Of a DNA stretch of 64,000 bases, positions 35,628 through 60,155 are shown piece after piece; position 1 is the first letter of the stretch; every line of letters begins with the position of its first letter. The position numbers and the translations under genes were made by a program. The notes under the pieces were generated by a model. It saw nothing but the letters and a program-made list of their open reading frames with translations, was not told the origin of the DNA and made no database searches. The stretch is from Longimicrobiales bacterium (lineage in GTDB: Bacteria; Gemmatimonadota; Gemmatimonadetes; Longimicrobiales; Gaopeijiaceae): NCBI GenBank assembly GCA_965198065.1, contig CBDAON010000003.1, positions 6,230 to 70,229 of the forward strand, in the 5' to 3' direction.

Positions 35628-35637
35628 TCAGTCGGGA

Positions 35638-43272: not shown

Positions 43273-43364
43273 CAGCCACGCCGCCTCTTGCACCCATCAT
43301 GGGTCGTGGCCCGACCTTGGGCGGACCAACGGTGAGCGTCGGCATGGCCTCCTGGGCTGCGGTA

Positions 43365-44400: not shown

Positions 44401-44953
44401 CGGGGCGGTCGAGCATCCGGATCTCTGCGACGCGGCACTCTCCTACCTGCTCGAGCGGATGCGCTTGGAGGTGGAGGACCCGTCCGAGGCGGCGCGGCTG
44501 AAGCTGATGGTCGTGGACGAAGCCTGGCGCTACCTGCAGGACCCCGCCGTGCTGAATTACTTGGCCGAGGCGGCGAAGACGTGGCGGAAGAAGAACGCCG
44601 CGCTGGTCCTGGCCACGCAGTCCGCGGTGGACGTCACGGCCACGCCCGGCGCTGTGGCGCTCCTCGAGTCGATCCCGACCAAGCTCTTCCTCGCGAACCC
44701 CGAGCTCCCCGACGAGATCGGGGCGCTGTTCCGGCTGAACGAGTCTGAGCTGGCCCAGGTCCGGGGCCTGATCCCGAAGCGCGAGCTCTACCTCCGCCGC
44801 CCGGACGGGGCGGCGGTGCTCCGGCTCGAGGTCGATCCGGAGAGCTACTGGCTCTACACCTCCTCGGCGCTCGATGCCGAGGAGCGCGCCCGGGCCATCG
44901 TGGTTCTCGCGAGCCGAGACGATCCCACCCCCACCCCCAACGCAAGGAGCTGA
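44400..44953 (+). pseudogene. VirB4/TrbE-type conjugation ATPase, C-terminal fragment
   Basis: LMVVDEAWRYLQDP (Walker B region), AALVLATQSAVDV, RELYLRRPDG..LEVDPESYWLYTSS. The N-terminal ~600 aa are absent. Confidence 0.7.
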
Positions 44954-44959
44954 TACGCC

Positions 44960-45673
44960 ATGCGACCACCAATAACACCCCTCGTTCTAATCGCGCTTCT
45001 CCTGGCTGCCCTCCCTGTTGCGGCCACCGCGCAGCAGGAGAACGACGACGCGTTCCTGCGGGTGACGGTCCCCGAGGAGGGCGAGGACCGGATCCACCGG
45101 CTGCGCACCCGGGTCCGCCACACGACGGTCATCGTGCTGCCGCCCGGCGAGAACATCCTGGACTTCGTGGCCGGCGACTCGGAGTACTGGCATCTGACGG
45201 GCGCGGCGAATGTCGCGTTCCTGAAGCCCCTCGCTTCGGACGCGGCGACCGACGACGCCCGTGCTGTGTTCGTCTACGCCGAGCCCGGCCACGAGACCGC
45301 CACCGCGCTCCGCTCGTGGGGCGATGCGCACCGGCGGCTCTGGGATGCGCTCAGGGAGCGGGGCCGATCCGTCGAGGTCGTGGCCGTCGTCCGCACCCCC
45401 AGGGAACTCGGACGGGCACGGACGATCCTCGGGAACTGGGCCGAGGCGCCCGCCGCCTCTGGCGCCGTCGATCCGGCCCGCCGCGAGATCGCCCGGATCG
45501 AGCAGGCGATCCGCGGCATGGACGACGCGGTGATCGACAAGCATGGCGGGCTGCAGGGCTGCCTCGAGCGGATCGTCGAGCTGGAGGACCGGCTCCGTTC
45601 CGCGCGCCCCGGAACGACGATCGACGGGTTCGCGGCATGGCGTTCGAGCCGGCTTCCCGGAGGCACATCTTGA
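44960..45673 (+). CDS. VirB9/TrbG-like N-terminal domain joined to an unrelated C-terminal part (likely chimeric)
   Basis: Signal peptide, then RVRHTTVIVLPPGENILDFVAGDSEYWHLTGAANVAFLKP. After ~residue 95 the sequence no longer looks VirB9-like. Confidence 0.5.
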   Translation: MRPPITPLVLIALLLAALPVAATAQQENDDAFLRVTVPEEGEDRIHRLRTRVRHTTVIVLPPGENILDFVAGDSEYWHLTGAANVAFLKPLASDAATDDARAVFVYAEPGHETATALRSWGDAHRRLWDALRERGRSVEVVAVVRTPRELGRARTILGNWAEAPAASGAVDPARREIARIEQAIRGMDDAVIDKHGGLQGCLERIVELEDRLRSARPGTTIDGFAAWRSSRLPGGTS

Positions 45674-45735: not shown

Positions 45736-47092
45736 ATAAGCGCTAACTTGTTTGCATTGCCATGGTGTTGTATAGTGAGGGCATGAGCAGAACCGTGACA
45801 GAGGCGCCGACAAGTGAGGACTGGGACCTGCTAGTATCGTTCTTCCCGAGCAACTGGCAGGAGCTGGCAGCGGAGACGGGAGCGCTGCGAGGGTTGCGCA
45901 AGGACAAGTCGCCGGAGAAGCTGCTGCGGACGCTGCTGATCCATCTCGGATGCGGGCATTCGCTGAGAGAAACGGTCGTGCGGGCTCGGCAGGCGAGCTT
46001 GGCGGATCTGTCGGACGTGGCGCTGCTGAAGCGGCTCCGGAAATCGCGGGACTGGCTGTATGCGTTGTGCGTGGAACTGTTCCGGGAGCACGGCATCGCG
46101 GTCTCGTCGGACGGGGGCTTCCAAGTGCGGGTCTTGGACGCCACGACCGTGCAGGAGCCGGGCCGGACCGGATCGTTGTGGAGGCTGCATTACAGCGTCA
46201 ACCTGCCTTCGTTGGGCTGCGACTTCTTCAAGCTGACCGGGACGGAAGGGTCCGGGGCGGGCGAGTCGTTCAAACAGTTTCCGATCCGTCCGGGTGACTA
46301 CGTGCTGGCCGACCGGGCCTACTCGAACGCGGCCGGGATCCAGCATGTGGCGATGGCCGGCGGTCACGTAACGGTGCGGGTGAACACCGGGACGCTGCCG
46401 CTGGAGACCGCGGACGGTCAGCCGTTCGAGTTGCTGACAGCCGTGGAATCCCTCGAGCGGCCTGGACCGGTCGGCGCATGGGCGGTGCGCACGGCGGCCA
46501 AGGCCGGCCCCCCGGTCGCAGGCCGAATCTGCGCCGTGCGCAAGACCGACGAAGCGATCGCGGCCGCGCACGCCAAGATCCGCAAGACAGCCCAGCGCAA
46601 GCAAAGCCAGGTCCGGCCGCAAACCCTGCATTTTGCCCGCTACGTCATCGTCTTCACGACCTACCCCCCGGAGGAGTTCTCGCCAGCCGACGTTCTGGAA
46701 TGGTACCGCCTACGCTGGCAGGTCGAGCTGGTCTTCAAGCGCTTCAAGTCCCTGGCCCGCCTCGGACATCTGCCGAAGTATGATGACGAAAGCGCGCAGG
46801 CCTGGCTGTACGGCAAACTGCTCGTGGCACTGCTGGTCGAGAAAGTCGTGCGCCACGCCGTGGCTATTTCCCCCTGGGGATACGACGTCGCGACAACGTC
46901 AGCCCCGCAGCCCTTGGCGTGACTTCAAGTTCGCACTCCACCAAGTCGCACGGGCCATCGAACCGGAGTTCTCTCTCGAAAAGATGATCCGCGAGTGGAG
47001 CAAGATCTCGGCTTCCCTGGCCGAACCTCCAAGGCAGAGACTCAACCAGGTGGACCGCCACTTCCCGATAAACTACACAAGTTAGCGCTTAT
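45736..47092 (+). mobile_element. IS4-family insertion sequence, apparently intact
   Basis: Perfect 16-bp terminal inverted repeats ATAAGCGCTAACTTGT (45736-45751) / ACAAGTTAGCGCTTAT (47077-47092). Flanked by the 13-bp direct repeat GGGAGCGACCCCC (45723-45735 and 47093-47105). Confidence 0.85.
45762..46922 (+). CDS. IS4-family DDE transposase
   Basis: 386 aa. VLDATTV, LADRAYSNA, YRLRWQVELVFKRFKS (the YREK-type block). Confidence 0.85.
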   Translation: MVLYSEGMSRTVTEAPTSEDWDLLVSFFPSNWQELAAETGALRGLRKDKSPEKLLRTLLIHLGCGHSLRETVVRARQASLADLSDVALLKRLRKSRDWLYALCVELFREHGIAVSSDGGFQVRVLDATTVQEPGRTGSLWRLHYSVNLPSLGCDFFKLTGTEGSGAGESFKQFPIRPGDYVLADRAYSNAAGIQHVAMAGGHVTVRVNTGTLPLETADGQPFELLTAVESLERPGPVGAWAVRTAAKAGPPVAGRICAVRKTDEAIAAAHAKIRKTAQRKQSQVRPQTLHFARYVIVFTTYPPEEFSPADVLEWYRLRWQVELVFKRFKSLARLGHLPKYDDESAQAWLYGKLLVALLVEKVVRHAVAISPWGYDVATTSAPQPLA

Positions 47093-47510: not shown

Positions 47511-47879
47511 TTGCCCGCGACTTGGCGGAGACAGGCCAAGGCGCTCCGCCGGTACGGGGGCGAGACTCCGGCCGTGGCGCTCGAGAGTTGCGCGGCCGAG
47601 CTCGAGACCACGCTCCGGGAGCGGGACGAAACCACCCTCTCCCTGACGGAGGCCGCCAGGGAGAGCGGCTACTCCGCGGACCACCTCGGCCGTCTCGTCC
47701 GCGACGGTAAGATCCCTAACGTCGGAAGGCCCGGCGCGCCCAGGATCACCCGCAGGCACCTCCCCCGGAAGCGAATGGCCCAAGTGCCCGCCAATCCGCC
47801 GCTGGTCAAGAAGCCTTCCCCACGCCAGGTTTCAAACGCGCAGATCGTGCAGTCCATCATCGAGAGAGGAATCGAATGA
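47511..47879 (+). CDS. Excisionase-like HTH DNA-binding protein
   Basis: LSLTEAARESGYSADHLGRLVRDGKIPNVGRPGAPRI. Its stop overlaps the integrase start (ATGA). TTG start is uncertain. Confidence 0.55.
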   Translation: MPATWRRQAKALRRYGGETPAVALESCAAELETTLRERDETTLSLTEAARESGYSADHLGRLVRDGKIPNVGRPGAPRITRRHLPRKRMAQVPANPPLVKKPSPRQVSNAQIVQSIIERGIE

Positions 47880-49039
47880 TGGCACGCACGAAACGAAGCC
47901 GGCGCAGCTATGGCACCGGCGAATGGGGCCGGAACCGGGTACGGGTCTTCCCGGATCCCAAGACCGGCCTGTTCCAGATCGAGTGGCGCGAGCGTGGGCG
48001 CAGGCTGAGCCGGTCGCTCAAGCACCGCGACTGGGCTCGGGCGAAGAAGCAGGCGGACGAGCTTGCCGCAGGCTTCGCCGGGCCGGTGATGGAAGGCAAA
48101 GCGGAAGCCGAGCCCGAGCCGCTCACTCTGGAGACGCTTTTTGACATCTACGGTGAAGAGGTGACGCCCACCAAGCGTGGGCAGTCGCGGCTGCACGACA
48201 GGGCCGCGACGGGGATGTTCCTCGGTTGCTTCGGCAGGGACCGGAAGCCCGCAACGCTCTCCCAGCGCGACTGGGACCGGTTCATCCGAGAGCGTAGGGC
48301 GGGCAGGGTTGGCCCGAGCGGCAAGCTGGTATCCGACCGGATGATCGAACGGGACCTCAAGTTCCTGATCGCGGTCCTCAACTGGGCCGCAAAGTCCAGG
48401 GACGAGCAGGGCCGCCTGCTTTTGGAAGCGAATCCCCTGAGAGGACTGAAGACGCCCAAACAGAAGAACCCGGCCCGAATCGTCCTGGCCGAGGAGGAGT
48501 ACCAGGCGCTTCTACGGGTGTCCCGGCAGGTCGACTGGCGGTTCCGCGTCGCGCTCGTCCTCGCCCACGAGACGGGACACCGCATCGGCGCAATCCGCAA
48601 GCTCTGCTGGTCGGACATCGACATGGAGGGCAGAACCATCCGCTGGCGCGCCGAACACGAAAAGTCGGGCTATGAGCACCGGACACCGGTGACCGCCGAG
48701 GCGCTTGCCGCCCTGGAGGAGGTGCGAAAGAGGAATCCCGGTATCGGGCACGCGCCCGTGCTGCCCTCGCCGCAGGATCGCTCGAAGTGCGTGGGCTCCT
48801 GTCAGGCGTACGGGTGGTGGCACAAGGCGGAGGGGCTCGCGGGGCTTGAACCCAAGCGTGGGAGAGGCTGGCACTCCCTGAGACGAAAGTTCGCCTCCGA
48901 CCTCATGGACCAGCCGCTCAAGGTGCTCTGCGAACTCGGCGGCTGGAAGGAGGCCAAGACGGTGCTGCAGTGCTACCAGCGGGCCGACGAAGGGCAACTC
49001 CGGAAGGCCCTAGATCACCGCCGCAGAGTTCGCGCCTGA
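47876..49039 (+). CDS. Tyrosine recombinase/integrase, apparently intact
   Basis: 387 aa. AHETGHRIGAIRKLCWSDID, GWHSLRRKFASDL, LGGWKEAKTVLQCYQ (R..HxxR..Y layout). Confidence 0.85.
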   Translation: MMARTKRSRRSYGTGEWGRNRVRVFPDPKTGLFQIEWRERGRRLSRSLKHRDWARAKKQADELAAGFAGPVMEGKAEAEPEPLTLETLFDIYGEEVTPTKRGQSRLHDRAATGMFLGCFGRDRKPATLSQRDWDRFIRERRAGRVGPSGKLVSDRMIERDLKFLIAVLNWAAKSRDEQGRLLLEANPLRGLKTPKQKNPARIVLAEEEYQALLRVSRQVDWRFRVALVLAHETGHRIGAIRKLCWSDIDMEGRTIRWRAEHEKSGYEHRTPVTAEALAALEEVRKRNPGIGHAPVLPSPQDRSKCVGSCQAYGWWHKAEGLAGLEPKRGRGWHSLRRKFASDLMDQPLKVLCELGGWKEAKTVLQCYQRADEGQLRKALDHRRRVRA

Positions 49040-49092: not shown

Positions 49093-50259
49093 TTAATTAC
49101 CCCAAGCAGATGCAAACCTGTCGACTTCTGCCGCCTCGACCCTGTTCTGTACCACATGTGCGAGGGCCGCTTCGATGACCTCGCGGGGATGATCCGTTTC
49201 CTCGGCCGCCCAGTCCCGGAAACTGGACCTGAAACCGTGTGGAACGGCCGCGATCCCATGCTTCCGGAACATCCGGCGCAGTTGCTTCTCCTCGAGCTGC
49301 TTACCGACTCGATTGGGAAACAGATACGGACTGGTTCCCTTCACCAGCGTCCGTGCCCCGTCCAGAATCTCCAGTGCACGACCACACAGCGGGACCCGGT
49401 GCTCGCGGTTCGCCTTCGTCCGCCTGGCCGGGACAGTCCACACACCCTCGTCCCGATCAATCTCGGTCCACTCCGCCCACCGCACCTCACCCCATCGTGC
49501 CGCCGTCAGCACCAGGAACTCGAACGCCAGCCGGACGGCCAGCGGCACCGTTGATGCCCGCGCGGTCTGGATGGCCGCGGCCACCTCTCGATGCGGCAGC
49601 GCCCGCATGTGCTGCACGACGTCACGCTGGGGACCCAGGACCGGGTCGATCCGGTTACAGGGGTTGTCGATCCGGAACTCCATCGCCACCGCCCACTCCA
49701 ACACCGCGCGGATGCGCTGCCGCAACCGCCGGGCGGTGTCCGCCTTCGTGTGCCAGATGGGAGCGAGGATCTCCAGCACGTCGGCGCTAGTGACCTCCGA
49801 GACCGGCATCTTCCCGATGCGCGGGAAGGCGTACCGCTCGAAGGTCAAGATCCACTCGCGGCCGTGCACCCGACTTCGCCAGCCGGCTTGCTTCTGTTCT
49901 ACTACACGCGCGGTGGCTTCGGCGAAGCTCGGTACGCCCTGCCTACGACGCTTCTCGGCAAGCGGGTCGCCGCCCTAGCGGGCCAGCTTACGGTTGGCCA
50001 GCGCCTTTTCCCGGGCCTCGGCGAGGGAGACCAGCGCGACGCTGCCGAGCCCGAGCTCGCGGCGCCGACCCCGGATGACCAGGCGCTGAATCCAGCTTCG
50101 GGTTCCGCTTGGCTGGACGAAGAGGTACAAACCGTTGCCGTCCGCGTGTCTTCCAGGCGGGGCAGTGCGCACGAAGGCGGCCGACAGGGCCTTGTCTGGA
50201 TGGCGGCCCTTGGGCTTGGTTTTCCGCGGCGGAGTGGCCTTGTTCGTTACAGTAACCAT
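49093..50259 (-). pseudogene. P4-like integrase (DUF4102 arm-binding N-terminus) with in-frame TAG and altered 3' end
   Basis: ORFs 49975..50259 and 49093..49869 share one frame, separated by TAG (49975-49977): ..NRKLAR-TAG-GGDPLAEKRR. The body is intact (HGFRSSFRDWAAE) but the end reads VEAA-EVDRFASAWGN instead of the AY.R..WA.YL tail. Confidence 0.8.
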
Positions 50260-50407
50260 CCCCGCATAATATAGGGGATGGAGGCGGATATCAATGGATG
50301 TTGTGAGCGGAGTGCGTTGCTAGTCTATGCTCGTAACTTACTGTTATAAAAGTCAGTTATGGACTTAACTGCGAACTGTGTACTTGACGCAAATACGGAT
50401 ACCTTGA

Positions 50408-50827
50408 ATGGGTGACAGACCGGCGCATCCACAGGTTTGGGCAAGAGTGAACGCCCATGTAGATGAAGGTGTGGCGGATCTCATATCCGCCCTCTCAAGA
50501 TTCAAGGGCCTACGTACCCTCGAAAGCTGTCAGGGTGAGCCAGACGGTGCGGCCTGGGCATGCTTCGTGGTGGGAGCAAACGTGGGGTGGAGGCCGCTAG
50601 CGGATCTCGTGTTGGGTTACCTGGGACCGGCTTTGGCCTCAGACCTTGGAGACATGGTGGACCTTTCGATTCACGCTACGGAAGCGGGCGGGGCGCAGGG
50701 AGAACTCACGGTGCGCTCGGAAGCGATGAGCGACACCGTGAGCCTCCTGCTCACACTATCGGCTGATTGGCAGCCTAGAGCGGCTTACCAAACGTGCGAG
50801 TGTTCTTGTGACACGTCTTACACATAG
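50408..50827 (+). CDS. Hypothetical protein (transposon passenger)
   Basis: 139-aa ORF with no recognisable motifs. Its 3' end overlaps the convergent HNH gene by ~50 nt, so the true extent is uncertain. Confidence 0.35.
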   Translation: MGDRPAHPQVWARVNAHVDEGVADLISALSRFKGLRTLESCQGEPDGAAWACFVVGANVGWRPLADLVLGYLGPALASDLGDMVDLSIHATEAGGAQGELTVRSEAMSDTVSLLLTLSADWQPRAAYQTCECSCDTSYT

Positions 50828-51005
50828 CCAACAGGTTTCCGAGGCCGTCACCGCCACCGCGGGTGCGGTGGTGGGCATGCCAGTCGGAACCGTGCAACCC
50901 GTGCTTGCAACGACCAGTGTGGTGCGAGCACACCGACATGGTGCACTCGCAACGTCCGCCTGCACGAATAAAGAGAAGGCGTCGAGTATCATTGGAAACA
51001 GCCAT
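50775..51005 (-). CDS. Small HNH endonuclease-domain protein
   Basis: GGRCECTMSVCSHHTGRCKHGLHGSDWHAHHRTRGGGDGLGNLLAMCKTCHKN: Cys pairs plus an H..N..H pattern. Confidence 0.7.
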   Translation of the reverse strand: MAVSNDTRRLLFIRAGGRCECTMSVCSHHTGRCKHGLHGSDWHAHHRTRGGGDGLGNLLAMCKTCHKNTRTFGKPL

Positions 51006-51176
51006 TGTAATGCGTCCTCGATTTGGAAAATGAATGTGAATGAAAGCACGTTTCAAAACGCCTTCTTAAACGACGTTTTAAACGACGCATTAAATGGCGT
51101 TTTAAGAGCACTTTCTTTTCGTGATTCTTTTCCTCGACGCAATTACACGATATACTTTATCTGTAAATGCGTGAGG

Positions 51177-51279
51177 TGCGGACGGCCGGAGTCGAACCGA
51201 CACGGGGCGTCAAGGGTCCGAGAGAACCCGCCCCACCAGCTTCCAAAGCCAGCGTGTTTACCAGTTTCGCCACGTCCGC
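51177..51279 (-). tRNA. Atypical class II (Leu-like) tRNA, apparent anticodon UGG, 34-nt variable arm
   Basis: Hand fold: GCGGACG/CGTCCGC acceptor, UGGCGAAACUGGUAAACAC D-arm, CUGGC-UUUGGAA-GCUGG anticodon arm, long V-arm (GGGGCG/CGCCCC plus GGUUC/GGACC), GUCGG-UUCGACU-CCGGC T-arm, A73. CCA is not encoded. Confidence 0.6.
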
Positions 51280-51433
51280 CAAACGCCTGGGGGCAGCCTT
51301 ACGGCCACCCCCAGGAAGACCCCGGTTACGGGGTTAGGATTTTATGGCGGCATGGTGATCTCCTTTCTGGCGTGTCAGCGCCGGTTAGGGTGAGTGGTGC
51401 GCCCCCATCGTCGGAAACGGCGGTGGGGGTCTG

Positions 51434-51898
51434 CTATTCTAGTCCACCGATCTCCTCTTGCTGTGCACCTCCCGGCCTCGTCCATTCTCGGAGACCGTAT
51501 TCGCCGGTATCAACCCGAATGAACTGGCCACCCTCCTTGTGTGATCGTCGGAGCATAGCGCCGAGGCTGTTGGCTAACTTCCTTCGGCCTTTCGCATACG
51601 GAAGTCCACGCTTCAGTAATGCGTCGGCGATATCTCGTGGTTGCATCGGTTGGCGGACCTCAAGCAAGCAGGACTCAGCAACCCCCTGTAGGGTAAGGCG
51701 GGGATTACTGTACCGACCGCCGTTAATAGACGGGGGTGCCTCGGACGCCTCCTCGGTTATGGTAGCCGGTGCTTGCGCTTCGGGTTCGCTCAGGTACTCG
51801 AACAGTATCTCTCGCGTGTTGCGGAGCTTGCGGGCGCGAGCTTCGTGGAATTGGATATCGCGATCAAGTCGCTGGATTAGGTCCATGTCGCTGGGCAT
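51434..51898 (-). CDS. Winged-helix (HARE-HTH-like, tentative) DNA-binding protein with N-terminal coiled coil
   Basis: 154 aa. The C-terminal part PRDIADALLKRGLPYAKGRRKLANSLGAMLRRS..FIRVDTGEYGLREW resembles HARE-HTH/wHTH modules. Confidence 0.45.
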   Translation of the reverse strand: MPSDMDLIQRLDRDIQFHEARARKLRNTREILFEYLSEPEAQAPATITEEASEAPPSINGGRYSNPRLTLQGVAESCLLEVRQPMQPRDIADALLKRGLPYAKGRRKLANSLGAMLRRSHKEGGQFIRVDTGEYGLREWTRPGGAQQEEIGGLE

Positions 51899-52040
51899 GT
51901 TCGCATCCTACCCTAAAGGGGTTAATGTGACCGAAGTTAACGGCAGCGTGCGATCTTTGCTAGGGTGTAGTGAGGACAACGCGACGACAGGCCGATCTTG
52001 CTTGTGGAATCAGTGTTAATCGTATTATAGGAGGACCCAT

Positions 52041-52232
52041 ATGGAGGCCGAAGAAAAGCCGACACCGGACAATAAGAAAACCGGTCCTGACGCAGATCGC
52101 GTGAAGCTCGAAGGAGACTGGGAGGATGCGGTGAAGAAGGCCCTGAAAAAGAAAAAGCCCCCCGAGGGCTGGCCGCAGGAGGACGAGCAGAGCGGGGAGT
52201 CTGTCAGTGATTCAGGATCGGACAGAGACTGA
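52041..52232 (+). CDS. Small highly charged protein
   Basis: 63 aa, Lys/Glu/Asp-rich, strong AGGAGG 6 nt upstream of the ATG. It overlaps the DUF3800 3' end convergently. Confidence 0.4.
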   Translation: MEAEEKPTPDNKKTGPDADRVKLEGDWEDAVKKALKKKKPPEGWPQEDEQSGESVSDSGSDRD

Positions 52233-52964
52233 GTGCCAGCCACCTATCGAATGCGTGTGTGCCCTTACCACTGGCCCGAGTTGCTGGTCGAAGCGCTTAA
52301 ACCGGGGGTTGTTCATGCGCCTGTACCAGTAGATCGCTGCGATGGTTCTGCCGATACCGTCTGCCGCTTGAACCCCATGATACCACTCCGACGGTACGAG
52401 GAGGGGGATCTCTGTAACGCGAGCGTCGGCTGTCCGAAAAACAGGGTCCGAGTAAATAAGACTCTGAGCGGACGCAAGAACGCGCGTATTCTGAGTCTCG
52501 GTGCGGCGGTCCATTATCACCACCCCCCGGCCCACACGCGATCCTGCTTTGTCGTTAAGATATTTTTCAAACCTACGCAGTGTACTTTGCATGAGGCTGG
52601 TATAAAGCCCGGAGTAGGAGTGGTTCGCACGAGTAGAGTCTTTCTTGACTCCGTTTGCAAAAACGGCGCCACCGCACGAACCAACCAACCCGAGCACCTG
52701 AGATATAAAGCGGATGTCGCGTCGCGTTCTGAGCGTCTTCGCTTCAAAGCGTTCCGGGCGGATACCGTGCAAGGTCTTGGCGCGAGATATTTCCCTGCTA
52801 TAGAAACGACACTTCAAGCGGAAATAGGACCGGTCGAAGTCACGCCACCGTTCGCCAGGAATGACAAATCCCGCAAAACCGAAAAGCGGGTGGTGCTGGT
52901 GTCGCGGATCGGTGGGATCATAGGGGCCTGGATGACCGAATTCATCGAGGTAGAGAAGGTACAT
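52212..52964 (-). CDS. DUF3800 domain protein
   Basis: ATG 52964 gives MYLLYLDEFGH.., the DUF3800-type N-terminal acidic motif; ~250 aa, typical family length. Confidence 0.7.
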   Translation of the reverse strand: MYLLYLDEFGHPGPYDPTDPRHQHHPLFGFAGFVIPGERWRDFDRSYFRLKCRFYSREISRAKTLHGIRPERFEAKTLRTRRDIRFISQVLGLVGSCGGAVFANGVKKDSTRANHSYSGLYTSLMQSTLRRFEKYLNDKAGSRVGRGVVIMDRRTETQNTRVLASAQSLIYSDPVFRTADARVTEIPLLVPSEWYHGVQAADGIGRTIAAIYWYRRMNNPRFKRFDQQLGPVVRAHTHSIGGWHSVSVRS

Positions 52965-53155
52965 GGAGGCATGCCCCGGTACAAAATACACAGAGCCCGC
53001 GCCGAAGCGCGAGCCCTGGGGAACTGCTTGACCCAAGCATCCGGAGACACAAGGGCTGGCAGTATTACAACAGATTGCTATACACAGTATAGCCTGTCAA
53101 GGATCCCCTTTGAAGGACTCCTGGGTACTCCTGGGTACTCTGGGGGGAACTTGGT

Positions 53156-54136
53156 TCATGGATGACGATACATGAGCCGCTTCCCCTCGGAGCCCCGGAT
53201 AGCGGTCTTGATCCTTTCTCCGTCGTCAATCTTGCGAGTATTCCACCGAAACTCGAACTCGGACACGTAACGGTGCAGATGCTCTTTGCTGACGTGGTGG
53301 AAGGTCCCCATGACGCCCCTCTTGAGAAGGGCAAAGAACCCCTCAACGGTGTTCGTTGTGGCGAGCACGTCCCCGTCCATGCGTGCATACTCGTTCTGCG
53401 AGTGACGAACCGTGTGATGCCCGTTGGCAAACTCGCGTCCCACTGGTATGTAATGCCTGGCTTCGTCAGTATGGAGCCGAGCCGCTTCTGGGTCCACGTT
53501 CTCCCGAAGGTTGCTAGCGAGGTTCGCAGAGGTCACGTTCGTTACGACCTTGGCGCGCGCCTCTCCGTCCCGCTCGACGATGGCAATGACGGGCGTCTTG
53601 TTGTCCATACGGCGAAACCCACGCGGACGACGCTTCCCGCGCACCGAGCGGGGGCGGATTTTTCCACCGACGAAAGCTTCATCCGCCTCGACATCGCCAG
53701 TAAGTGGACCGCCCGTGTTGGCTGCACCATTCATCGCGTATCGGACCCGGTGCATGAGGAACAAGGCGCTCTTGTACGTGAGGCCGGTTTGCCGTTTGAT
53801 CTGCAAAGCGGACACGCCCTTCTTGCTGGAGCACGCCGCCCAAAACGCAAAGCACCAATGCCGCATGGGAATCCGGCTGTCCTCCATGATGGTTCCGATG
53901 CGGACCGTGAACTGACGGGCGCACCCACGGCACCGCCAGAGGTACCGGGCGTTCCGCTCACCGGTATTCCGATCCTTCATCATGTAGACATCGACATCGC
54001 CACAACGGGGGCACGACGGCTCCCCCTCCCAGCGCATGTCTTCGAGGAATTCGACCGCTGTGTCTTCGTCGGCACAGGCCATTGGGATGGCCCCGACGAT
54101 GTCCGATTTATCGCCCGCGATCTTCGACATTTTCAC
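53156..54136 (-). CDS. IS1595-family transposase (zinc ribbon plus DDE)
   Basis: CPRCG..WRCRGCARQFTVRIGTIMEDSRIPMRHW, SALQIKRQTGLTYKSALFLMHRVR, then the DDE region ..NTVEGFFALLKRG. Confidence 0.88.
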   Translation of the reverse strand: MKMSKIAGDKSDIVGAIPMACADEDTAVEFLEDMRWEGEPSCPRCGDVDVYMMKDRNTGERNARYLWRCRGCARQFTVRIGTIMEDSRIPMRHWCFAFWAACSSKKGVSALQIKRQTGLTYKSALFLMHRVRYAMNGAANTGGPLTGDVEADEAFVGGKIRPRSVRGKRRPRGFRRMDNKTPVIAIVERDGEARAKVVTNVTSANLASNLRENVDPEAARLHTDEARHYIPVGREFANGHHTVRHSQNEYARMDGDVLATTNTVEGFFALLKRGVMGTFHHVSKEHLHRYVSEFEFRWNTRKIDDGERIKTAIRGSEGKRLMYRHP

Positions 54137-54254
54137 TCACCTTTGGAGGCTTGAATTCACACTCTAAAGATAAGGGATGTACGTGTTTGCGTCAAGTATC
54201 TAGTTCCGACTTAACTGGACGATACTGTACACCGGTCCAGATAGTCTGCCCATT

Positions 54255-54708
54255 CCTGGGTCGTGCGTGGCTGCCCGAGCACCCGGCACGCTCTCCTCTC
54301 CGACGCCCCGAGCTGCTGACGTACACGCACCACACAACGTCGTCGGCCCTCGGGGCTCAGAAGTTTCCCTTGGCCGCTTCCTCCACGATCAGCTTGTCCA
54401 GTGTCAAGTCCGCCACTGCTCGCTTCAGGCGCCCGTTCTCGCGCTCGAGCTCCTTCAGGCGCCGTGCCTGGCTCACCTTCATCCCGCCGTACTCCCGCCT
54501 CCACCGGTAGTACGTCTGCTCGGTGATGCCGAGCTCCCCCCTGATCAGCTTCACGGATTTGCCGCCGGCCAGACCGACCTCTGCCTCCCGCACTGCAGTG
54601 ATGATCTGCTCCGGAGTGTGTCGCTTCCTTCCCATCCTGACCTCCTCGCTGAAAAGCTTCGGACCAGGTCGATCCTAACATTGCACCTGGTCTCGTTTCA
54701 GCGGGTCA
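54255..54708 (-). mobile_element. IS3-family element, copy 1, truncated within orfB
   Basis: The left end TGACCCGCTGAAACGAGACCAGG (rc of 54686-54708) matches copy 2 at 62757. Homology to copy 2 stops near 54255 after ..ACRVLGQPRTTQ. Confidence 0.8.
54357..54635 (-). CDS. IS3-family transposase OrfA (HTH)
   Basis: MGRKRHTPEQIITAVREAE..EQTYYRWRREYGGMKVSQARRLKELERENGRLKRAVADLTLDK. Confidence 0.85.
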   Translation of the reverse strand: MGRKRHTPEQIITAVREAEVGLAGGKSVKLIRGELGITEQTYYRWRREYGGMKVSQARRLKELERENGRLKRAVADLTLDKLIVEEAAKGNF

Positions 54709-54974
54709 GGTCAGGTTCGTTAATTGATACGGTCACCTTGCCCGTCCGGCCGTGATACGTAAGCAGCCGGTTTGGCTCACGAATGCCGGCGACACTAAGC
54801 ATGAAGTCGGTGACGGCTAGGGAAGCGACGACGCCGTTGGCATGCATCGGCACGCAAGATTGGAGGGATTCGCCGAGTCACGGCCCGCGCGTGCGACACG
54901 TCGACTCCGCCGCGCACGGAGGCTGAACCCGAAGCCGATATACGGGGGACATCAAGATTCCCGTAGACCGGGGC

Positions 54975-55688
54975 TCAGATCTTGCGTCCTACCAGGAGAG
55001 TGTGTGGGCGATCCTGCCAGATACAGTCAGCCTGGAATTTGGCTTCGCGCATGGCCGCGAGTTCGTCGTCGACTGAAAAGTAGGTGTCCTCCGCCGACCA
55101 CGCGGCGAAGTGCTCATAGGCGCGCTGTTCGTCAATGCCGCACGACACCAGGTGGGCGGCCCATCGACGGTACGACTGCTCGCGCGCCCCCGCCGGGTGT
55201 GCGCTGATGGCCACGTCGGTGTTCACGAAGACGCCACCGGGGCGGAGCACCCGGTAAATGCGTGTATAAAGCGTGAGTTTGCGTGCCATGGTGGGAACGT
55301 GGTGCAGAGCCAGGGCCGTAGCCACGGCGTCACACGTGGAGAGTGGCGCCTCGAACGACCGCCGGCGGACACGAGCGCGGGTCCCAAATCGCTTGAGCCG
55401 AAGGCGCGCCTGGGCCAGCATCTCAGGATCGATGTCGATGGCTTCAACGGCACCGACGCGTTCATGGTCCAGCATCGCTTCAGCCAAGGCGCCCGTTCCC
55501 GCGCCGAGGTCAAGCACCAGGGTTGGGCGAACACCAGCGATTTCGTTGGCAGCCCTCGCCAAGCCTTCTTCGTAGCCTGGGATGAACGTGCGGATGGTCT
55601 CGTCGTAGGCATCAATCTCAAGGCGAAGATGATGGCGGACAGAGTGGCTCATCAGCTGATCGTAGGTCAATGGTTCATAGACGCTCAC
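54975..55688 (-). CDS. Class I SAM-dependent methyltransferase
   Basis: Motif I VLDLGAGTGALAE; post-I and motif II spacing typical of small-molecule methyltransferases. Confidence 0.85.
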   Translation of the reverse strand: MSVYEPLTYDQLMSHSVRHHLRLEIDAYDETIRTFIPGYEEGLARAANEIAGVRPTLVLDLGAGTGALAEAMLDHERVGAVEAIDIDPEMLAQARLRLKRFGTRARVRRRSFEAPLSTCDAVATALALHHVPTMARKLTLYTRIYRVLRPGGVFVNTDVAISAHPAGAREQSYRRWAAHLVSCGIDEQRAYEHFAAWSAEDTYFSVDDELAAMREAKFQADCIWQDRPHTLLVGRKI

Positions 55689-56235
55689 GTGCGGAGCTTC
55701 GACAGCGGTTACGTTACGCAGTCACCACAGCATCATGAAAAACGCACTAGACGTGGCCATGCGAAAGGCCTGAGCGCCTCTCCCCCAGAATCGTCGATTC
55801 TTGGCCCCGGCGGGGGGCCGACGTTGCACTCCGGCCATCCCGCCTTTGGGGTCGCTCAGGATCAATGGTTCCCTCCGTGAAGGGGTAAAACCTTAGTCGG
55901 AAAAATGATCGATAAGTCCCGTTTATCGCGCAGGATACGTCCCCCACCTCCTCACCCCACCGTCCAGCCATGAGGCCACGCGGGCGTCTCTAGGAGCCCC
56001 CGAAGAGTTCTGAGGACACGCGAAGCGGTCCGCCGAACCCAGCGGTTTCTGGCCCCCCACGATCCATCCGTCGCCTCGCGTCCTCAAGCAATGCTCGCCT
56101 ACAATCCAAAGAATATGACCGAAGACGAACGAGAACACCTGCTCAGCACAGCTTGGACCCGCTGGTGGAGTTGCCGCTCGGACGGACATCTCCTAACTCT
56201 TTGTATATCAGGTGTTCTTGGGCTTTTATGGAGCG

Positions 56236-56592
56236 CTACAGAACGTCAATAGATGCGTCGATCTCACCGAACACGCCGTGCGCAATGAGTTCTCTCGTGT
56301 TGGCGACCGCAGCTTCAGGTTCGTAGCCGTCGTCGCGCACCAGAAGCCGGAGGGAGCGACCGTGCACGCCACCCTGCTGGTTGGCTTCCTCGAAGGCCGC
56401 GCGGATGCCCAGGTTCATGTCCCGGCCCAGTTGGCCCGCGGGACCGTTCAGCGCAGCCGACTGGCCGAAGACGATGGAATCCGGGAATACGCCCTCCCCG
56501 CCGGATCCCCCTTCCTGGGCGCGGCCGCCACCCGCCGGCAGGATGCCGCCGGCCACGGCCAATGCGCCAAGGGCGAAGCGGTAGCGGCCCAT
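56236..56592 (-). pseudogene. LivK-type ABC substrate-binding protein, N-terminal fragment
   Basis: Signal peptide, then IVFGQSAALNGPAGQLGRDMNLGIRAAFEEANQQGGVHGRSLRLLVRDDGYEP. It stops after ~119 aa, against the ~380-400 aa I recall for this family. Confidence 0.6.
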
Positions 56593-56642
56593 CACGGCGA
56601 ATTTCCCAGGTACCGGATGGTCAGGCAGGTGATATCGTCGGA

Positions 56643-57703
56643 CTAGGGTGCTTCGCCCGCGTGTTCCTGCACCGCCTTGACCACATGGTGGTTGATCGCC
56701 TCCGCGCTCGACCCCGCGCACTCCGCCAGGACCCCGTCCAACTTTTCCTCTCCGAATTCGACGCTGTTTTCGTCCATTGCTTCCGTGACGCCGTCCGTGT
56801 AGAGGAAGATGGCGTCACCCGGATCCAAGTGTACGGATCCGCTCGGGAAGTCGAACGACGGCACGACCCCCAGAACCAGTCCCGAATCGCAAACGAGCTG
56901 CTGAACCTCGCCGGAAGCCTTGACCACGAAGGGAAGATTGTGCCCGGCGTTCGCATAGATGGCTTGCCCGGTTGCGGGGTCGAACTTGGCGTAGAACACC
57001 GTGACGAACATCGCCTCCTTGTTCTCCTCTCCGAGGAGCCGATTGACCTCCTCGAGGCACTTCGCGGGGTCGCTCTCCCCAATGGCGGTCCCCTTCAAGA
57101 GTGTCCGGCTTACCAGCATGAAGAAGGCGGCCGGCACACCTTTACCGGATACGTCCGCCACCACGACCCCCTTCCGTCCGTCCTCAAGTTGGAAGAAATC
57201 GTAGAAGTCACCGCCGACATATCGAGGGCCGGAGTCATCCGGTCCTGCATCCGGGCTGCCACCCCGAGCTCCTTGCGTAGGGCCACGAGTTCGTCTCTCG
57301 ACCGAAGCGCATCCCTCATCACCCGCAGGTGTTCGAGGGTCTTCGCGATCGTGGTGTCCAGATCGTCGAAATCGATCGGCTTGGTCACAAAGTCGAACGC
57401 GCCACGGTTCATGGCGGTCCGAATGTTCTTCATGTCCCCGTACGCCGTGACGATGACCGCACGCAAATCGTAGTTCAGCTGGTTCAACTGCCCGAGGAGG
57501 GTCAGTCCGTCCATCTCGGGCATGTTGATGTCCGAGAGCACCATGTCCACGTCAGAGTGGGTCCCGAGCTGCTCCAGGGCCTGAACTCCATTCTGGGCGA
57601 AGACCAGATCGAACTCGCCGGAGCGGACCCGGCGGCGGAATTTCTGTCGGAGTAGCAGCTCCAGATCAGGCTCGTCGTCTACTACGATAATCTTCGGCAT
57701 CAT
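56643..57703 (-). pseudogene. Response regulator with PP2C/SpoIIE phosphatase output (RsbU-like), one frameshift
   Basis: REC: KIIVVDDEPDL..MVLSDINMPEMDG..TAYGD..KP. PP2C in another frame: VGGDFYDFFQLEDGRKGVVVADVSGKGVPAAFFM..ANAGHN..LYTDGVTEA. The switch is near 57215. Confidence 0.8.
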
Positions 57704-57969
57704 GGACCCGGCTGAGGTGAATCGTGTCATCGAGAGAGTACGTCGGGCAAAACGGAATCTGGGGAAGAACCCTGCCTCCGTCTCTGGGGTGGTGGTGCAT
57801 GCCCCCCTGTCTTCCAGTCAGTCGATTCGTCACCCGTGGTTTTGATTCTCGTCGCGAGGCGGTCGGGAGCGCTAAGTTGCGCGAAATCTTCACAAACCAG
57901 GCCTGGCCGCGCAATGTTGTTTGAAGCTTCGGGTGTCCCTGGTTTTCGGCCTGGAAAAAGAGCGAAAAA

Positions 57970-58210
57970 GTGGTGGTCAGACTACGGATAGCCGTGAAGT
58001 TGGACCTGGGCGAACCCCGCCGGGTGACCCAGGAACTCGAACGCTTTGGCGTCGAGCACGGATTTGCTCAGGATCTCAGCTTCCGTCTCCAATTGTGCAT
58101 GGACGAATTGCTGATCAACATCATCTCCTATGGATACGAGGGCATCGCCGCCGATCCGATCATCACGGTGAACCTCCAGCTCGACGATTCTAAAATCAGA
58201 ATCCTAATTC
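57970..58210 (+). pseudogene. RsbW/SpoIIAB-like anti-sigma serine kinase, N-terminal fragment
   Basis: FRLQLCMDELLINIISYGYEG..ITVNLQLDDSKIRILIRDNAG, then homology is lost where the parA relic starts. Confidence 0.5.
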
Positions 58211-58214
58211 GGGA

Positions 58215-58781
58215 CAATGCGGGCGGTGGTCGAGGCGGATCACCTGCCGGGCTACTCCATAAGCTCAGGACCTTCTTCCGGTTTAGGAAGAGACCAGCAT
58301 ATCCGTGCGGCCTTCCTCAAAAGCAGGAAGCTACCGCGAGCTCCGGAAGTATCTCACGGCCTTCGACTGGATCGTGGTCGATTGCCCGCCTTCGGCCGAC
58401 TCCCCCATCTCGCGGAGTGCGTTGCTCGTCTCTGACCTGGCGCTCGTCCCCATGATCCCCTCCCCCCCCGACCTGTGGGCAGGCGTAGCGATCCGGCAAG
58501 TCCTGGATGACGTCATGGCAGTCAACGAAACCCTGGTGGCGCGGATCGTTGTGAACCAGCGTAAGCCACACACCCGCCTGGCTGCGCGTGGCGGAAAGCT
58601 TCCCGGTCGCCGATCTGCGTCGCCAGGACCGGAATGCCGTAGCGGGGGAGGAGGTCCCGGGTCCGCGCCGGCCGCGGGGCTCACTGTCGCTGACCTTCCT
58701 CGAGCTCGGCCAGCAGCGGCCGAGATTGAGGCGTTCACCGACAAGGTTGTCGCGATCATGAACGGAGATCGCGGAGCATGA
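58215..58781 (+). pseudogene. ParA-family partition ATPase relic (no Walker A, several frameshifts)
   Basis: FDWIVVDCPPS..SDLALVPMIPSPPDLWA..ARIVVNQRKPHTRLA..AGLTVADL..AAAEIEAFTDKV, with parts in alternative frames. Confidence 0.65.
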
Positions 58782-59170
58782 GCGCGGCCAAGGATCCGCT
58801 CGATGGGCTGGCCGACTCGCTGGACGCGGAGGAGGAGGCCGTGGGGCGGCGCTTCCGCGAGGCCGAGCGCTTCACCCAGGGGCTGCCCCCTGCGGGCGCG
58901 TCGGAGGAGACGGAGGCTCCGAGCCCGGCGCCGGTGGCGCGATCTGTGCAGAGCTCGGGCGTCGTCCGTACTCAGTTCAGCTTCCCGGTCGAGGATCACA
59001 AGCTCATCGAAACGCTCCAGACACGGGGTCTGCGTCAGGGCTTGAGGCTCACCCGAAGCCAGATCGTTCGGGCAGGCCTCCGAGCCCTCGACGCCATGAC
59101 TCCAGGGGAGTTCGGCGAGACCGTGGAGCAGAGCGAGCCCTTGAAGCCAGGGCGGAAACCGAGCTCGTGA
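58778..59170 (+). CDS. Putative centromere-binding partition protein (RHH/ParG-like C-terminus)
   Basis: ATGA overlap with the parA relic stop. VRTQFSFPVEDHKLIETLQTRGLRQGLRLTRSQIVRAGLRAL. Confidence 0.45.
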   Translation: MSAAKDPLDGLADSLDAEEEAVGRRFREAERFTQGLPPAGASEETEAPSPAPVARSVQSSGVVRTQFSFPVEDHKLIETLQTRGLRQGLRLTRSQIVRAGLRALDAMTPGEFGETVEQSEPLKPGRKPSS

Positions 59171-59441
59171 AGAGCTTCTCAGACGCCAGGTGCCGACGTG
59201 GCCAGACTAACCTCTTTCACTCGCGCGTCCCTTGGGGTCCCGCGTGATCTTTCGGGCCGCCATCGCTTGCCCCTTTCCGTTTCCGGTAACACTTCCATTT
59301 CCGCCCTGAACCTCCCGGAACGACCCAGAGAGAGTATGGCAGGAGGGAGACGGCCGTGGATGCCGCGACGCTAGCGATGCCGAGAAAACCAGCCCCACCA
59401 AGCAAGGTGATCCTTCCATCAGCCCTCCAACACTCGCCGGT

Positions 59442-60155
59442 ATGGTAGCCATGCGCCTCCTGCTCGCTCTTCTGGTATCTCTCGCTGCTGTTGTGCCCGA
59501 GTCGGCACGGGCTCAGGATCCAGAGACGGCCCCCCCCTTCGTCGCTGGCGGTCACCTGCTCTTTGCAACTCCCACTGGGCCGTTTGCCGAGAATGTGGAC
59601 TTCGGTTTCGGGCTGGGTGGACACGGACGCTACGTGGTGGATGACGGCGGGATCCTGAGCCTCCGGCTCGATCTAGGCTTCATCAACTACGGGAACGAGA
59701 CGATCCGTATCTGTGTCATCCTACCCTGCCGGGTCACCGGGGACCTGACGACCGATAACAACATCTTCCTTCTCGGAATCGGACCGGAGATCGGGGGAGG
59801 CTCAGATTCCATCCGGCTGTATGCCAACGCCTCCATCGGATTCGCCCATTTTTCCACGACTTCTTCCGTAAATGGGTCGAATGATGTCGGGAATCCCTTT
59901 GCATCGTCTACCAACTTCCAGGATGCCACATTCGCCTGGACGGCAGGGCCCGGCCTGCAGCTCCGGGTGTGGACAGACGAGCAGGCGTCGGTCTCACTCG
60001 ATGTGTTCGCCCGATATAACGGGAACGGTGAAGCACGCTACCTCAGGAAGGGAGACATCCAGGACCAGCCCGACGGGAGCGTCCTCCTGAATCCGCGGCA
60101 AAGCGAGACGAACTTCTGGACGATCGGGCTTGGAGTGTCCGCGAGATGGCGGTGA
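59442..60155 (+). CDS. Outer-membrane beta-barrel protein
   Basis: Signal peptide ..ARAQD, alternating strand pattern, C-terminal GLGVSARWR. Confidence 0.65.
   Translation: MVAMRLLLALLVSLAAVVPESARAQDPETAPPFVAGGHLLFATPTGPFAENVDFGFGLGGHGRYVVDDGGILSLRLDLGFINYGNETIRICVILPCRVTGDLTTDNNIFLLGIGPEIGGGSDSIRLYANASIGFAHFSTTSSVNGSNDVGNPFASSTNFQDATFAWTAGPGLQLRVWTDEQASVSLDVFARYNGNGEARYLRKGDIQDQPDGSVLLNPRQSETNFWTIGLGVSARWR

Follow-up and report, generated by a model that had tools for sequence, protein, structure and literature searches.

Can a bacterial insertion sequence (IS) carry, as a lasting part of itself, a transfer RNA (tRNA) gene whose body and anticodon point to two different amino acids, and could its own genes be adjusted to such a tRNA? 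The question is raised by a 103-nucleotide (nt) tRNA gene with a leucine-type body and the proline anticodon UGG, found in DNA of a Longimicrobiales bacterium of the phylum Gemmatimonadota (contig CBDAON010000003.1 of assembly GCA_965198065.1). The stretch analysed, hereafter the window, comprises 64,000 nt (positions 6,230 to 70,229 of the contig), and coordinates given without a locus name refer to it. The gene lies within a 3,838-base pair (bp) transposon of the IS1595 family. It is conserved cargo inside the inverted repeats (IRs) and target-site duplication (TSD) of IS1595-type elements, and its anticodon pairs in full with CCA, a rare codon that is conserved at specific sites of the transposase. 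We give an even chance to the proposal that this is a functional tRNA gene, carried as IS1595 cargo, coupled to translation of the transposase and most likely leucylated.

The tRNA and its family

According to the Rfam tRNA model, the window holds a single tRNA-like gene:

51279-51177, reverse strand: class II (leucine-bodied) tRNA, 103 nt; supported by Rfam, a family covariance model, the cloverleaf, the fold of the variable arm and covariation

A cmscan search matched the full RF00005 model at 51279..51177 (-) with 41.4 bits, above the gathering score of 29 (E = 2.3e-05). A preliminary description of the locus had proposed a 103-nt Leu-like class II tRNA with a UGG anticodon and a 34-nt variable arm, and had suggested a covariance-model search as a check; the full-length Rfam match and a direct reading of the gene both agree with it, down to the parts of the cloverleaf. 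The acceptor has 7 bp (GCGGACG/CGUCCGC) and is followed by U8. The D-arm, GCGAAACUGGUAAACAC, contains one C11-A24 mismatch in its 3-bp stem, and the anticodon stem, CUGGC/GCUGG, has 5 bp including two G-U pairs. The loop UUUGGAA places the anticodon UGG at 51245-51243 and an A at position 37. The 34-nt variable region (~51235-51202) forms a two-tier helix, GGGGC/GCCCC followed by GGGUUC-UCUC-GGACCC, with a 5-nt bulge on the 3' side. The T-arm (GUCGG-UUCGACU-CCGGC) is canonical, the discriminator is A73 and the CCA end is not encoded.

ARAGORN, apparently misled by the length of the variable arm, reported no tRNA in the window and is therefore unusable for judging this gene. Thermodynamic folding of the tRNA alone was unremarkable as well (z = -1.5). 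Since fold energy is thus not distinctive, support for the gene comes from covariance models and from comparison with relatives.

Relatives were sought in one genome per species from 185,579 species. The search pattern asked for a D-arm of the Leu type (with A14 and A15 imposed), the anticodon loop YUUGGR, an extended variable region and a T-loop; it placed no demand on the stems of the acceptor, anticodon and T arms. The scan returned 88 loci with Leu-bodied UGG tRNAs, nearly all of them with intact 7/5/5-bp stems and A73; together with the window these make up the 89 tRNA loci referred to below. Their hosts include Acidobacteriota, Planctomycetota, Verrucomicrobiota, Gemmatimonadota, Chloroflexota, Actinomycetota and Bacteroidota, further Alpha-, Beta-, Gamma- and Deltaproteobacteria, and candidate phyla. 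A cultured carrier is Sphingomonas sp. JC676 (locus L064, contig NZ_JACTGR010000004.1). The stems of the 88 tRNAs differ from one another through compensatory changes. In an alignment of 46 copies, 98.8% of the cells were paired and double changes occurred in 15 of 20 pairs; none of 500 shuffles reached the observed values, and slid registers were ~40% paired.

The very long variable arm of the window tRNA is shared by ~22 copies, with the same architecture throughout: a covarying G/C base helix of 4-6 bp, an inner hairpin and a 3'-side bulge of 3-6 nt. Thus, of the earlier remark that this arm is unusually long, the length of 34 nt stands and the peculiarity does not. The longest arm met, ~46 nt, belongs to a 115-nt member (L176:5964-6078) located 37 nt from the stop codon of a transposase gene. 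The C11-A24 mismatch is found in the window copy only. All other genome-scan copies have C11-G24, and some relatives found through the transposase have U11-A24, so that C11-A24 may be a one-step intermediate between covarying C-G and U-A pairs, a slight defect of this copy or a read error.

A family covariance model, R1, was built on 46 relatives and calibrated on the reference tRNAs of two loci (L193 and L182). Canonical Leu isoacceptors scored 54-75 bits under R1, Pro tRNAs ~41 and Ser tRNAs 27-29; the window tRNA scored 54.3 bits (E = 3e-11). As R1 ranks Leu above Pro and Ser, the tRNA body is of the Leu type by an objective measure, which bears out the combination of a Leu-type body with a Pro anticodon that had been read from the window. 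The anticodons of tRNA-Leu are NAG or YAA, and CUN-reading tRNA-Leu has G37. The window tRNA has UGG and A37, and is therefore not filed as a tRNA-Leu isoacceptor. UGG is conserved in more than 100 homologues across phyla (the 88 genome loci and at least 15 loci sampled through the transposase) and so is not an error.

Carriage by an IS1595-family transposon

The element that contains the tRNA is made up of the following parts:

50372-54209, no strand assigned: IS1595-family transposon, 3,838 bp, with terminal IRs and TSD; sole copy in the window
50364-50371, no strand assigned: left TSD, 8 bp, CTTAACTG, a perfect match to the right copy
54210-54217, no strand assigned: right TSD, 8 bp, CTTAACTG, a perfect match to the left copy
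50372-50397, forward strand: left terminal IR, CGAACTGTGTACTTGACGCAAATACG
54182-54209, reverse strand: right terminal IR, TCGGAACTAGATACTTGACGCAAACACG, holding a -35-like TTGACG upstream of the transposase gene
53156-54136, reverse strand: IS1595-family DDE transposase, 326 amino acids (aa), with a Zn ribbon and an ISXO2-like DDE domain
52212-53036, reverse strand: cargo open reading frame (ORF), 274 aa, with a DUF3800 domain (Pfam)
51434-51898, reverse strand: cargo ORF, 154 aa, with a C-terminal HARE-HTH domain (Pfam), directly upstream of the leader described below and the tRNA
50408-50827, forward strand: cargo ORF, 139 aa, without a family match in Pfam

The two ends of the element form an imperfect 33-nt inverted repeat, and its core, TACTTGACGCAAA, occurs at these two ends only in the whole window. 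The transposase matches PF12762 (1.6e-35) and PF12760 (2e-11), and its plasmid relatives carry the NCBI annotation 'IS1595 family transposase'. The transposase ORF is intact, the target duplication perfect and the IRs are recognisable. A duplication of 8 bp is typical of the IS1595 family. An AT-rich near-palindrome (AAAACGCC..AAACGACGTTT / AAACGACGCATTAAATGGCGTTTT) lies within the transposon at 51055-51103, ~75-120 nt beyond the 3' end of the tRNA, and might serve as a terminator or bind a protein.

The association extends well beyond the window. When the ORFs within 5 kb of the 89 tRNAs were clustered, one transposase recurred in 51 loci, within ~2 kb of the tRNA. At ~25 loci, homologous IRs (consensus roughly CGGAAGTATGTACTTGACGCAAA) and 8-bp duplications enclose both the tRNA and the transposase. 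The preliminary description had tied the tRNA to a transposon and proposed a search for UGG homologues on other copies of it; that search was carried out, conserved homologues were found in many phyla, and the tie holds both through the enclosing repeats and through the nearby transposase. The tRNA either closes the transposase operon on its 3' side, which is the case in the window, or is convergent with the transposase gene, 12-120 nt from its stop codon. The other passengers vary, being HARE-HTH and DUF3800 proteins in the window and Fic, NYN, HTH-M78, DUF5343 and SecB-like proteins elsewhere. Among the passenger genes of the elements, Pfam revealed no synthetase or tRNA-modifying enzyme, and the window HARE-HTH protein showed no BLAST similarity to the 'cluster 4' protein that takes the same position in other elements.

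Loci were also sampled through an alignment of the transposase, without reference to the tRNA (80 of >580 metagenome loci and 80 of >560 viral or mobile-genetic-element loci), and searched with ARAGORN and R1. Among the closest relatives (transposase identity of at least 50%), most have an oversized tRNA within ~2 kb, and UGG is the dominant anticodon (L089, L090, L093, L094, L097, L098, L101 and L172, further L174, L176, L177, L178, L188, L195 and L244). The 14 closest metagenome relatives among those sampled include ~11 with a class II tRNA, namely 7 with UGG, one each with UGC and GUC, and one truncated copy. In the viral and mobile-element sample, 8 UGG and 2 AGG tRNAs lie within ~2 kb of the transposase. 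ARAGORN labels the family tRNAs 'tRNA-Pro' in the sampled metagenome loci.

AGG is the second recurrent Pro anticodon (L122:5994-6080, L194:6062-6145 and L180:4152-4252, L122 being a more distant relative). To our knowledge, A34 is almost absent from bacterial tRNAs except tRNA-Arg(ACG). Leu-like class II tRNAs with other anticodons were found as well, namely UGC at L102:300-393 (with C73 and without G3-U70) and GUC at L099:146-232; UUA, which would read the stop codon UAA, and GGA are possible only (L247:6666-6747 and L207:6264-6347, respectively). In the L102 transposase, GCA accounts for 8 of 24 Ala codons. These cases suggest that the element family experiments with several 'wrong' anticodons.

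The tRNA bodies vary too. Family-type IRs at L091 enclose an odd class I tRNA, also with UGG, and another odd class I UGG tRNA lies 23 nt from the transposase stop codon at L131. L097 has a row of three class II tRNAs (L097:4397-4803), placed ~200-600 nt upstream of the gene for a close relative of the transposase. A Ser-type D-arm and G73 accompany UGG in one of these; the other two are Leu(GAG) according to ARAGORN, at least one of them with a non-U33 loop. IS boundaries were looked for at L097 and not found. Non-canonical T-loops, UGCAAAU or UUGGACC, occur in several relatives. More distant transposases, including all plasmid relatives tested (protein identity of at most 42%), have no tRNA, and a blastn search of plasmids with the whole element gave no match. 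Carriage of a tRNA is therefore a trait of a single transposase subclade, whose tRNAs have the Pro anticodon as their constant feature.

Codon match, leader and charging

In the window transposase, CCA accounts for 5 of 11 Pro codons (45%); its share is 7% in host genes and 4% elsewhere in the island:

54085-54083, reverse strand: CCA codon of P18
53707-53705, reverse strand: CCA codon of P144
53491-53489, reverse strand: CCA codon of P216
53446-53444, reverse strand: CCA codon of P231
53161-53159, reverse strand: CCA codon of P326, the last codon before UGA

CCA makes up 26-27% of the Pro codons in UGG-paired transposases as against 11-12% in tRNA-less relatives, and the other NNA four-fold codons are equal between the two groups. 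Among 133 testable columns of the transposase alignment, the four highest in third-position A are all Pro-CCA (0.81-0.89; median 0.095, next column 0.33). The conserved CCA sites, among them P18, P144 and P326 of the window, are located close to the N-terminus, within the hinge that precedes the catalytic domain, and at the C-terminal end. After de-replication to 40 lineages below 70% identity (median pairwise identity 43%), CCA was retained at conserved columns in 18/19, 23/26 and 15/19 cases over a background of ~10%, and the pattern was repeated in the newly sampled UGG loci. In 17 firmly bounded elements, CCA reached 29.6% in the transposase, 21.7% in the cargo and 10.8% in host flanks, the values for other NNA codons being 9.1%, 16.7% and 9.4%, respectively. 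The CCA enrichment is thus specific to the transposase gene.

At the CCA columns, Pro is mostly CCG or CCC in L092 and L096, which are close relatives without a tRNA. In L180, which has an AGG tRNA and a transposase nested in the UGG clade, CCA accounts for 0/9 and CCT for 4/9 Pro codons. The transposases of two further AGG loci, L122 and L194, are 78% identical and have their only two CCT codons at hot columns 429 and 717.

Complementary to the transposase gene, and in exactly complementary codon register, runs an antisense ORF of 330 aa (53162-54154, forward strand) without a Pfam match. Conserved Trp codons (TGG) of an overlapping antisense gene were considered as a cause of the CCA codons and rejected: the antisense frame contains stops in 44 of 51 related elements and is therefore a GC-rich 'shadow' ORF, not a gene.

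A second feature that involves proline codons precedes the tRNA in the window:

51342-51364, reverse strand: leader, with a Shine-Dalgarno (SD) sequence AGGAG at 51364-51360 and a mini-ORF AUG CCG CCA UAA (Met-Pro-Pro) at 51353-51342
51286-51334, reverse strand: two stable hairpins between leader and tRNA (hairpin 1 at 51334-51319, hairpin 2 at 51315-51286)

The leader AUG, preceded by a strong SD, lies 74 nt upstream of the tRNA, and the hairpins reach to within 6 nt of its 5' end; in RNAfold, the 62-nt spacer has a folding energy of -39 kcal/mol. The same layout recurs at other loci: the SD and AUG are followed, directly or after one Lys or Arg codon, by two or three Pro codons, of which the last is mostly the rare CCA or CCU, and beyond the stop codon there are two or three strong hairpins. 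Of the 89 tRNA loci, 12 have such a leader where 0.02 would be expected, the remaining 1.13 Mb of those loci containing one occurrence; it is also found in L094 and L188. A search of the 89 loci without the SD requirement added none. The leader is thus a trait of one SD-using, mainly alphaproteobacterial element subfamily that includes the window element. Similarities in the T-arm and the leader of the window copy likewise point towards Alphaproteobacteria; an exact-protein look-up of the neighbouring ORF gave no record. From locus to locus, the Pro codons of the leader are exchanged for synonymous ones, as is typical of a leader that is translated. Every locus with a leader has equivalent hairpins, the first starting ~7 nt past the stop codon. 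The hairpins resemble an attenuator; they have no U-tract, and a convincing alternative pairing was sought and none established.

With which amino acid such a tRNA would be charged can be approached through identity elements. In E. coli, leucyl-tRNA synthetase (LeuRS) needs A73, the A15-U48 Levitt pair, G18G19, A20a and the D/T-loop tertiary pairs, and the anticodon and variable arm are not required (PMC9976931). The earlier statement that bacterial LeuRS does not read the anticodon agrees with this set. The window tRNA has it in full (A73, A15-U48, G18G19, A20a, U8-A14 and the D/T-loop tertiary nucleotides; D-loop GAAACUGGUAAAC, T-loop UUCGACU). A73 is present in the window tRNA and in 83/89 relatives. 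U48, the last base of the variable region, is invariant and was not imposed by the search pattern; A14 and A15, which were, are also present in the transposase-sampled copies. E. coli prolyl-tRNA synthetase (ProRS) uses G35, G36, A73, G72 and G15-C48 (PMC9976931), and loss of m1G37 lowers its charging of tRNA-Pro ~17-fold (PMC8643618). From the Pro set, the window tRNA has G35 and G36 (within UGG) and A73 only; it departs from tRNA-Pro in G1-C72, A15-U48, A37 and the 34-nt variable arm. Family-wide, G1-C72 occurs in 70/89 and A37 in 65/89 (73%). With a full Leu set and a partial Pro set, the identity rules favour leucylation, and on balance charging with Leu appears somewhat more likely than charging with Pro.

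These observations can be arranged into a mechanism. The transposase, the two cargo genes on its strand, the leader with its hairpins and the tRNA lie on one strand in one IR/TSD unit, which suggests that the tRNA would probably be made from the transposon's own transcript. Its UGG anticodon would read the rare Pro codon CCA, and probably also CCG or CCU by wobble. As CCA is kept at a few substitution-tolerant positions of the transposase, translation of the transposase may be coupled to the element's own supply of tRNA. The polyproline leader, by analogy with mgtP of Salmonella, might sense the decoding of Pro codons and feed back on tRNA output. If leucylated, the tRNA would insert Leu wherever CCA is read, a rare codon in these GC-rich hosts; of all steps of the mechanism, that of charging is the least secure.

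A more elaborate version of this proposal, which we consider doubtful, is a private circuit in which the leucylated UGG tRNA competes with host tRNA-Pro, the leader is autoregulatory and the CCA codons of the transposase act as 'gate' codons, with a spread of Pro(CCA)-to-Leu substitution. If such a circuit exists, transposase synthesis or the ratio of Pro and Leu isoforms would report tRNA dose, for instance for copy-number control, and the leader would hold down the level of a potentially toxic tRNA. Low-level Pro(CCA)-to-Leu mistranslation would then have been spread by horizontal transfer over at least 10 bacterial phyla.

Several observations weigh against a leucylated tRNA coupled to translation of the transposase. 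As regards carriage, 38 of the 89 tRNA loci have no transposase within 5 kb. The family IR motif was found in 0/38 of these, in a search that recovers just 16/51 of the transposase-bearing loci, so that this zero is uninformative. As regards the tRNA and leader, the C11-A24 mismatch lies in a 3-bp D-stem, so that the window tRNA may be impaired, and the leader occurs in only ~13% of loci, with hairpins that lack a U-tract. As regards codons, the close relatives L179 and L181 keep CCA with no tRNA within 5 kb, independent gains are few because the UGG elements are largely one transposase clade, and the p-values of the codon link are without phylogenetic correction.

Column 717, which corresponds to P326 of the window, also counts against it. 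Here ~20 tRNA-less relatives keep CCT, or more generally NCT (for example L119, L123, L127, L139, L141, L204 and L226). In the motif L-x-Y-R/Q-Q/R-X at this place, X is CCT, ACT, GCT or TCT, bases 2 and 3 being kept while the residue varies, which looks like a nucleotide-level or rare-codon constraint. Rare-codon conservation at column 717 therefore predates the tRNA and is not explained by it. The apparent covariation of AGG anticodons with CCT at this column was downgraded for the same reason, CCT or NCT being present in ~20 tRNA-less relatives as well.

The residues at the CCA columns are a further difficulty. In relatives that lack CCA, these columns hold Pro (CCG, CCC or CCT) or A, N, D, Q, S, E, K or T, and almost never Leu. 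Leu is thus not 'needed' there, and a Pro-inserting tRNA fits equally well or better. A Pro codon at conserved Leu columns of the transposase was met once only, as CCC, which lends no support to obligatory decoding as Leu. The heterogeneity of the bodies (Leu-like, Ser-like and class I) further suggests that the anticodon, and not the amino acid, is selected. The CCA columns are substitution-tolerant, and therefore do not discriminate Leu from Pro. Of the earlier suggestion that the tRNA could insert Leu at CCN codons, the part that relies on LeuRS recognition is favoured by the identity rules, and the conserved CCA columns hold almost no Leu in relatives.

The alternative that survives best has the tRNA charged with proline, as a private tRNA-Pro(UGG) that supplies rare CCA decoding in GC-rich hosts without mistranslation; we regard it as possible, though on the unlikely side. 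G35, G36 and A73, which ProRS recognises, are all in the window tRNA, and anticodon recognition by ProRS is conserved in evolution (PMC9976931). Pro is retained at the CCA columns of relatives, where the synonymous codon alone changes, different tRNA bodies share UGG, and the second recurrent anticodon, AGG, is also that of Pro. The leader is made of Pro codons, like mgtP, which senses Pro-tRNAPro. However, a canonical tRNA-Pro is never the one carried: another base stands in for G72, the Levitt pair is A15-U48 and A37 occurs in most copies, while all LeuRS elements are kept and LeuRS ignores the anticodon. Codon supply also leaves unexplained why CCA stands at a few positions while invariant prolines use CCG or CCC.

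Quite improbable, in our estimate, is a role outside decoding, in which the tRNA-shaped RNA or DNA would be a processing signal for RNase P/Z or a stabiliser of the 3' end on the transcript of the transposase operon, a roadblock or terminator separating convergent genes, or a cofactor of the transposase. The place of the tRNA at the operon 3' end, or convergent at 12-120 nt from the transposase stop codon, would suit such a role, as would the non-canonical T-loops of several relatives. Yet such a role needs no conserved anticodon, no 7-nt loop with U33, no D/T-loop tertiary nucleotides and no A73, and it predicts neither matching codons in the transposase nor a Pro-codon leader.

Hardly credible is a chromosomal tRNA-Leu(UAG) altered by an A35G mutation or sequencing error, or serving as the attachment (att) site of a P4-type integrase island: a single substitution separates UGG from UAG, the D-stem of the window copy is mismatched at one pair and, at 918 nt from the 3' end of the tRNA, there is a gene for a tyrosine integrase (49093-50259), but UGG is kept in the homologues counted above with divergent compensated stems, which led us to reject the mutated or mis-sequenced tRNA-Leu that had been named as the main alternative, and the transposon IRs and TSD separate the tRNA, inside the IS, from the integrase, outside the IR/TSD unit, with no repeat of the tRNA 3' 22 nt at up to 3 mismatches in the window (the far island end may lie outside).

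Known systems and genomic surroundings

A close likeness to a Leu-bodied tRNA of this kind is found in nematodes, whose nev-tRNAs have class II Leu-type bodies with Gly or Ile anticodons and are leucylated in vitro (PMC3333845). Like the transposon tRNAs, they combine a Leu body with a non-Leu anticodon, are conserved across species and rely on a LeuRS blind to the anticodon. They differ in being eukaryotic chromosomal genes with Gly or Ile anticodons and leucylation shown in vitro, whereas the transposon tRNAs, known from sequence, are bacterial, have UGG or sometimes AGG, are carried by a DNA transposon and are accompanied by matching transposase codons and a polyproline leader.

In bacteria, allo-tRNAs have an 8/4 or 9/3 acceptor/T geometry, Ser identity and long variable arms (PMC5389517), and tRNAProX of Streptomyces combines Pro identity and non-Pro anticodons with a dedicated synthetase, ProRSx (PMC10404621, PMC11415595). 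Both share with the transposon tRNAs a bacterial setting, disagreement between body identity and anticodon, and a patchy distribution resembling that left by horizontal gene transfer. The transposon tRNAs differ from both in their 7/5 geometry, Leu identity with a Pro anticodon, the lack of a synthetase on the element and carriage by an IS.

IS1595-family ISs with passenger genes are a recognised group in the ISfinder classification. The window element shares with them the transposase with Zn ribbon and ISXO2-like DDE domain, the IRs, the 8-bp duplication and the variable passengers. Full-text literature searches brought up no IS1595 member or other bacterial IS with a conserved tRNA passenger or a codon-matched transposase, and no account of a tRNA carried by an IS or of a UGG tRNA with a Leu body in bacteria.

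Phage- and plasmid-borne tRNA genes match the codon usage of their element. As in the transposon, the anticodon of such a mobile-element tRNA fits codons over-represented in the element's own genes. Phage and plasmid tRNAs are canonical, however, and the bias they match is gene-wide, while the transposon has a non-cognate body, a carrier of 2-4 kb and a match to a few codon positions of one gene.

For the leader, the nearest counterpart is mgtP of Salmonella, an SD-preceded ORF of 17 codons with three consecutive Pro codons in a transcription attenuator that responds to Pro-tRNAPro (PMC3641672). Like the transposon leader, mgtP and mgtL consist of an SD and a short ORF with consecutive Pro codons, followed by stem-loops and conserved at the peptide level; they act as sensors of Pro-tRNAPro or of elongation dependent on elongation factor P (PMC3641672). 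mgtP controls Mg2+ transporter and virulence genes, and its alternative structures have been demonstrated. The transposon leader differs in having 3-6 codons, in ending right after the prolines and in preceding a tRNA gene with a Pro anticodon.

None of these nearest systems combines a Leu body, a Pro anticodon, IS carriage, a position-specific codon match and a leader. The tRNA belongs with the anticodon-mismatched class II tRNAs, there is a substantial chance that the whole circuit is something new, and the evidence points to a link, not described before, between a mobile element and the way the genetic code is read. Should the tRNA prove active, an IS class that is common in bacteria carries a decoder of a rare codon and has its own transposase tuned to that decoder. 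A conserved tRNA passenger would then be on record for a DDE transposon for the first time, as would a leader-peptide sensor before a tRNA gene, and bacteria would have a natural counterpart of the nematode Leu-bodied 'wrong-anticodon' tRNAs. An active tRNA would also make it possible to test whether natural mistranslating tRNAs are tolerated and regulated in bacteria, and whether mobile elements use codon-tRNA pairing for control of activity or for a wider host range. In addition, annotation pipelines label such genes 'tRNA-Pro' or miss them, as ARAGORN does in the window, and the family is a source of tRNA scaffolds that are compact and possibly orthogonal and have very long variable arms.

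The transposon lies among other mobile sequences. GC content is 56-65% at ~21000-50300 and 54300-63000, as against 67-70% in the first 21 kb of the window, and this low-GC stretch contains mobile-element debris; the transposon therefore sits in a larger genomic island or a remnant of an integrative and conjugative element. The P4-type integrase near the transposon is split into two ORFs, both on the reverse strand, with an Arm-DNA-binding part at 49975-50259 and the core and catalytic part at 49093-49869, and is probably frameshifted. A second tyrosine integrase is found at 47876-49039 (forward strand), preceded by an HTH_17 excisionase-like ORF at 47511-47879. The window shows neither a tRNA target nor an att repeat for these integrases.

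Further away, fragments of the type IV secretion genes TraG and CagX (44459-45673) adjoin a DDE_Tnp_1 IS (45762-46922), and an ORF at 42385-43293, by its look a chimera or pseudogene, joins an N-terminal part of MmeI to the C-terminal end of a short-chain dehydrogenase. A group II intron occupies 35479-37519 (reverse strand), with Rfam matches to D1-D4 and D5/D6 and a 467-aa ORF inside (35638-37041). On the other side of the transposon, an IS3-type OrfA (HTH_Tnp_1) lies at 54357-54635. Among the loci sampled elsewhere, L193 (IMGVR_UViG_3300037840_000216), a contig of the viral and mobile-element set, contains an array of 26 tRNA genes representing most isotypes, with an IS1595-family transposase inserted mid-array (5001-5864).

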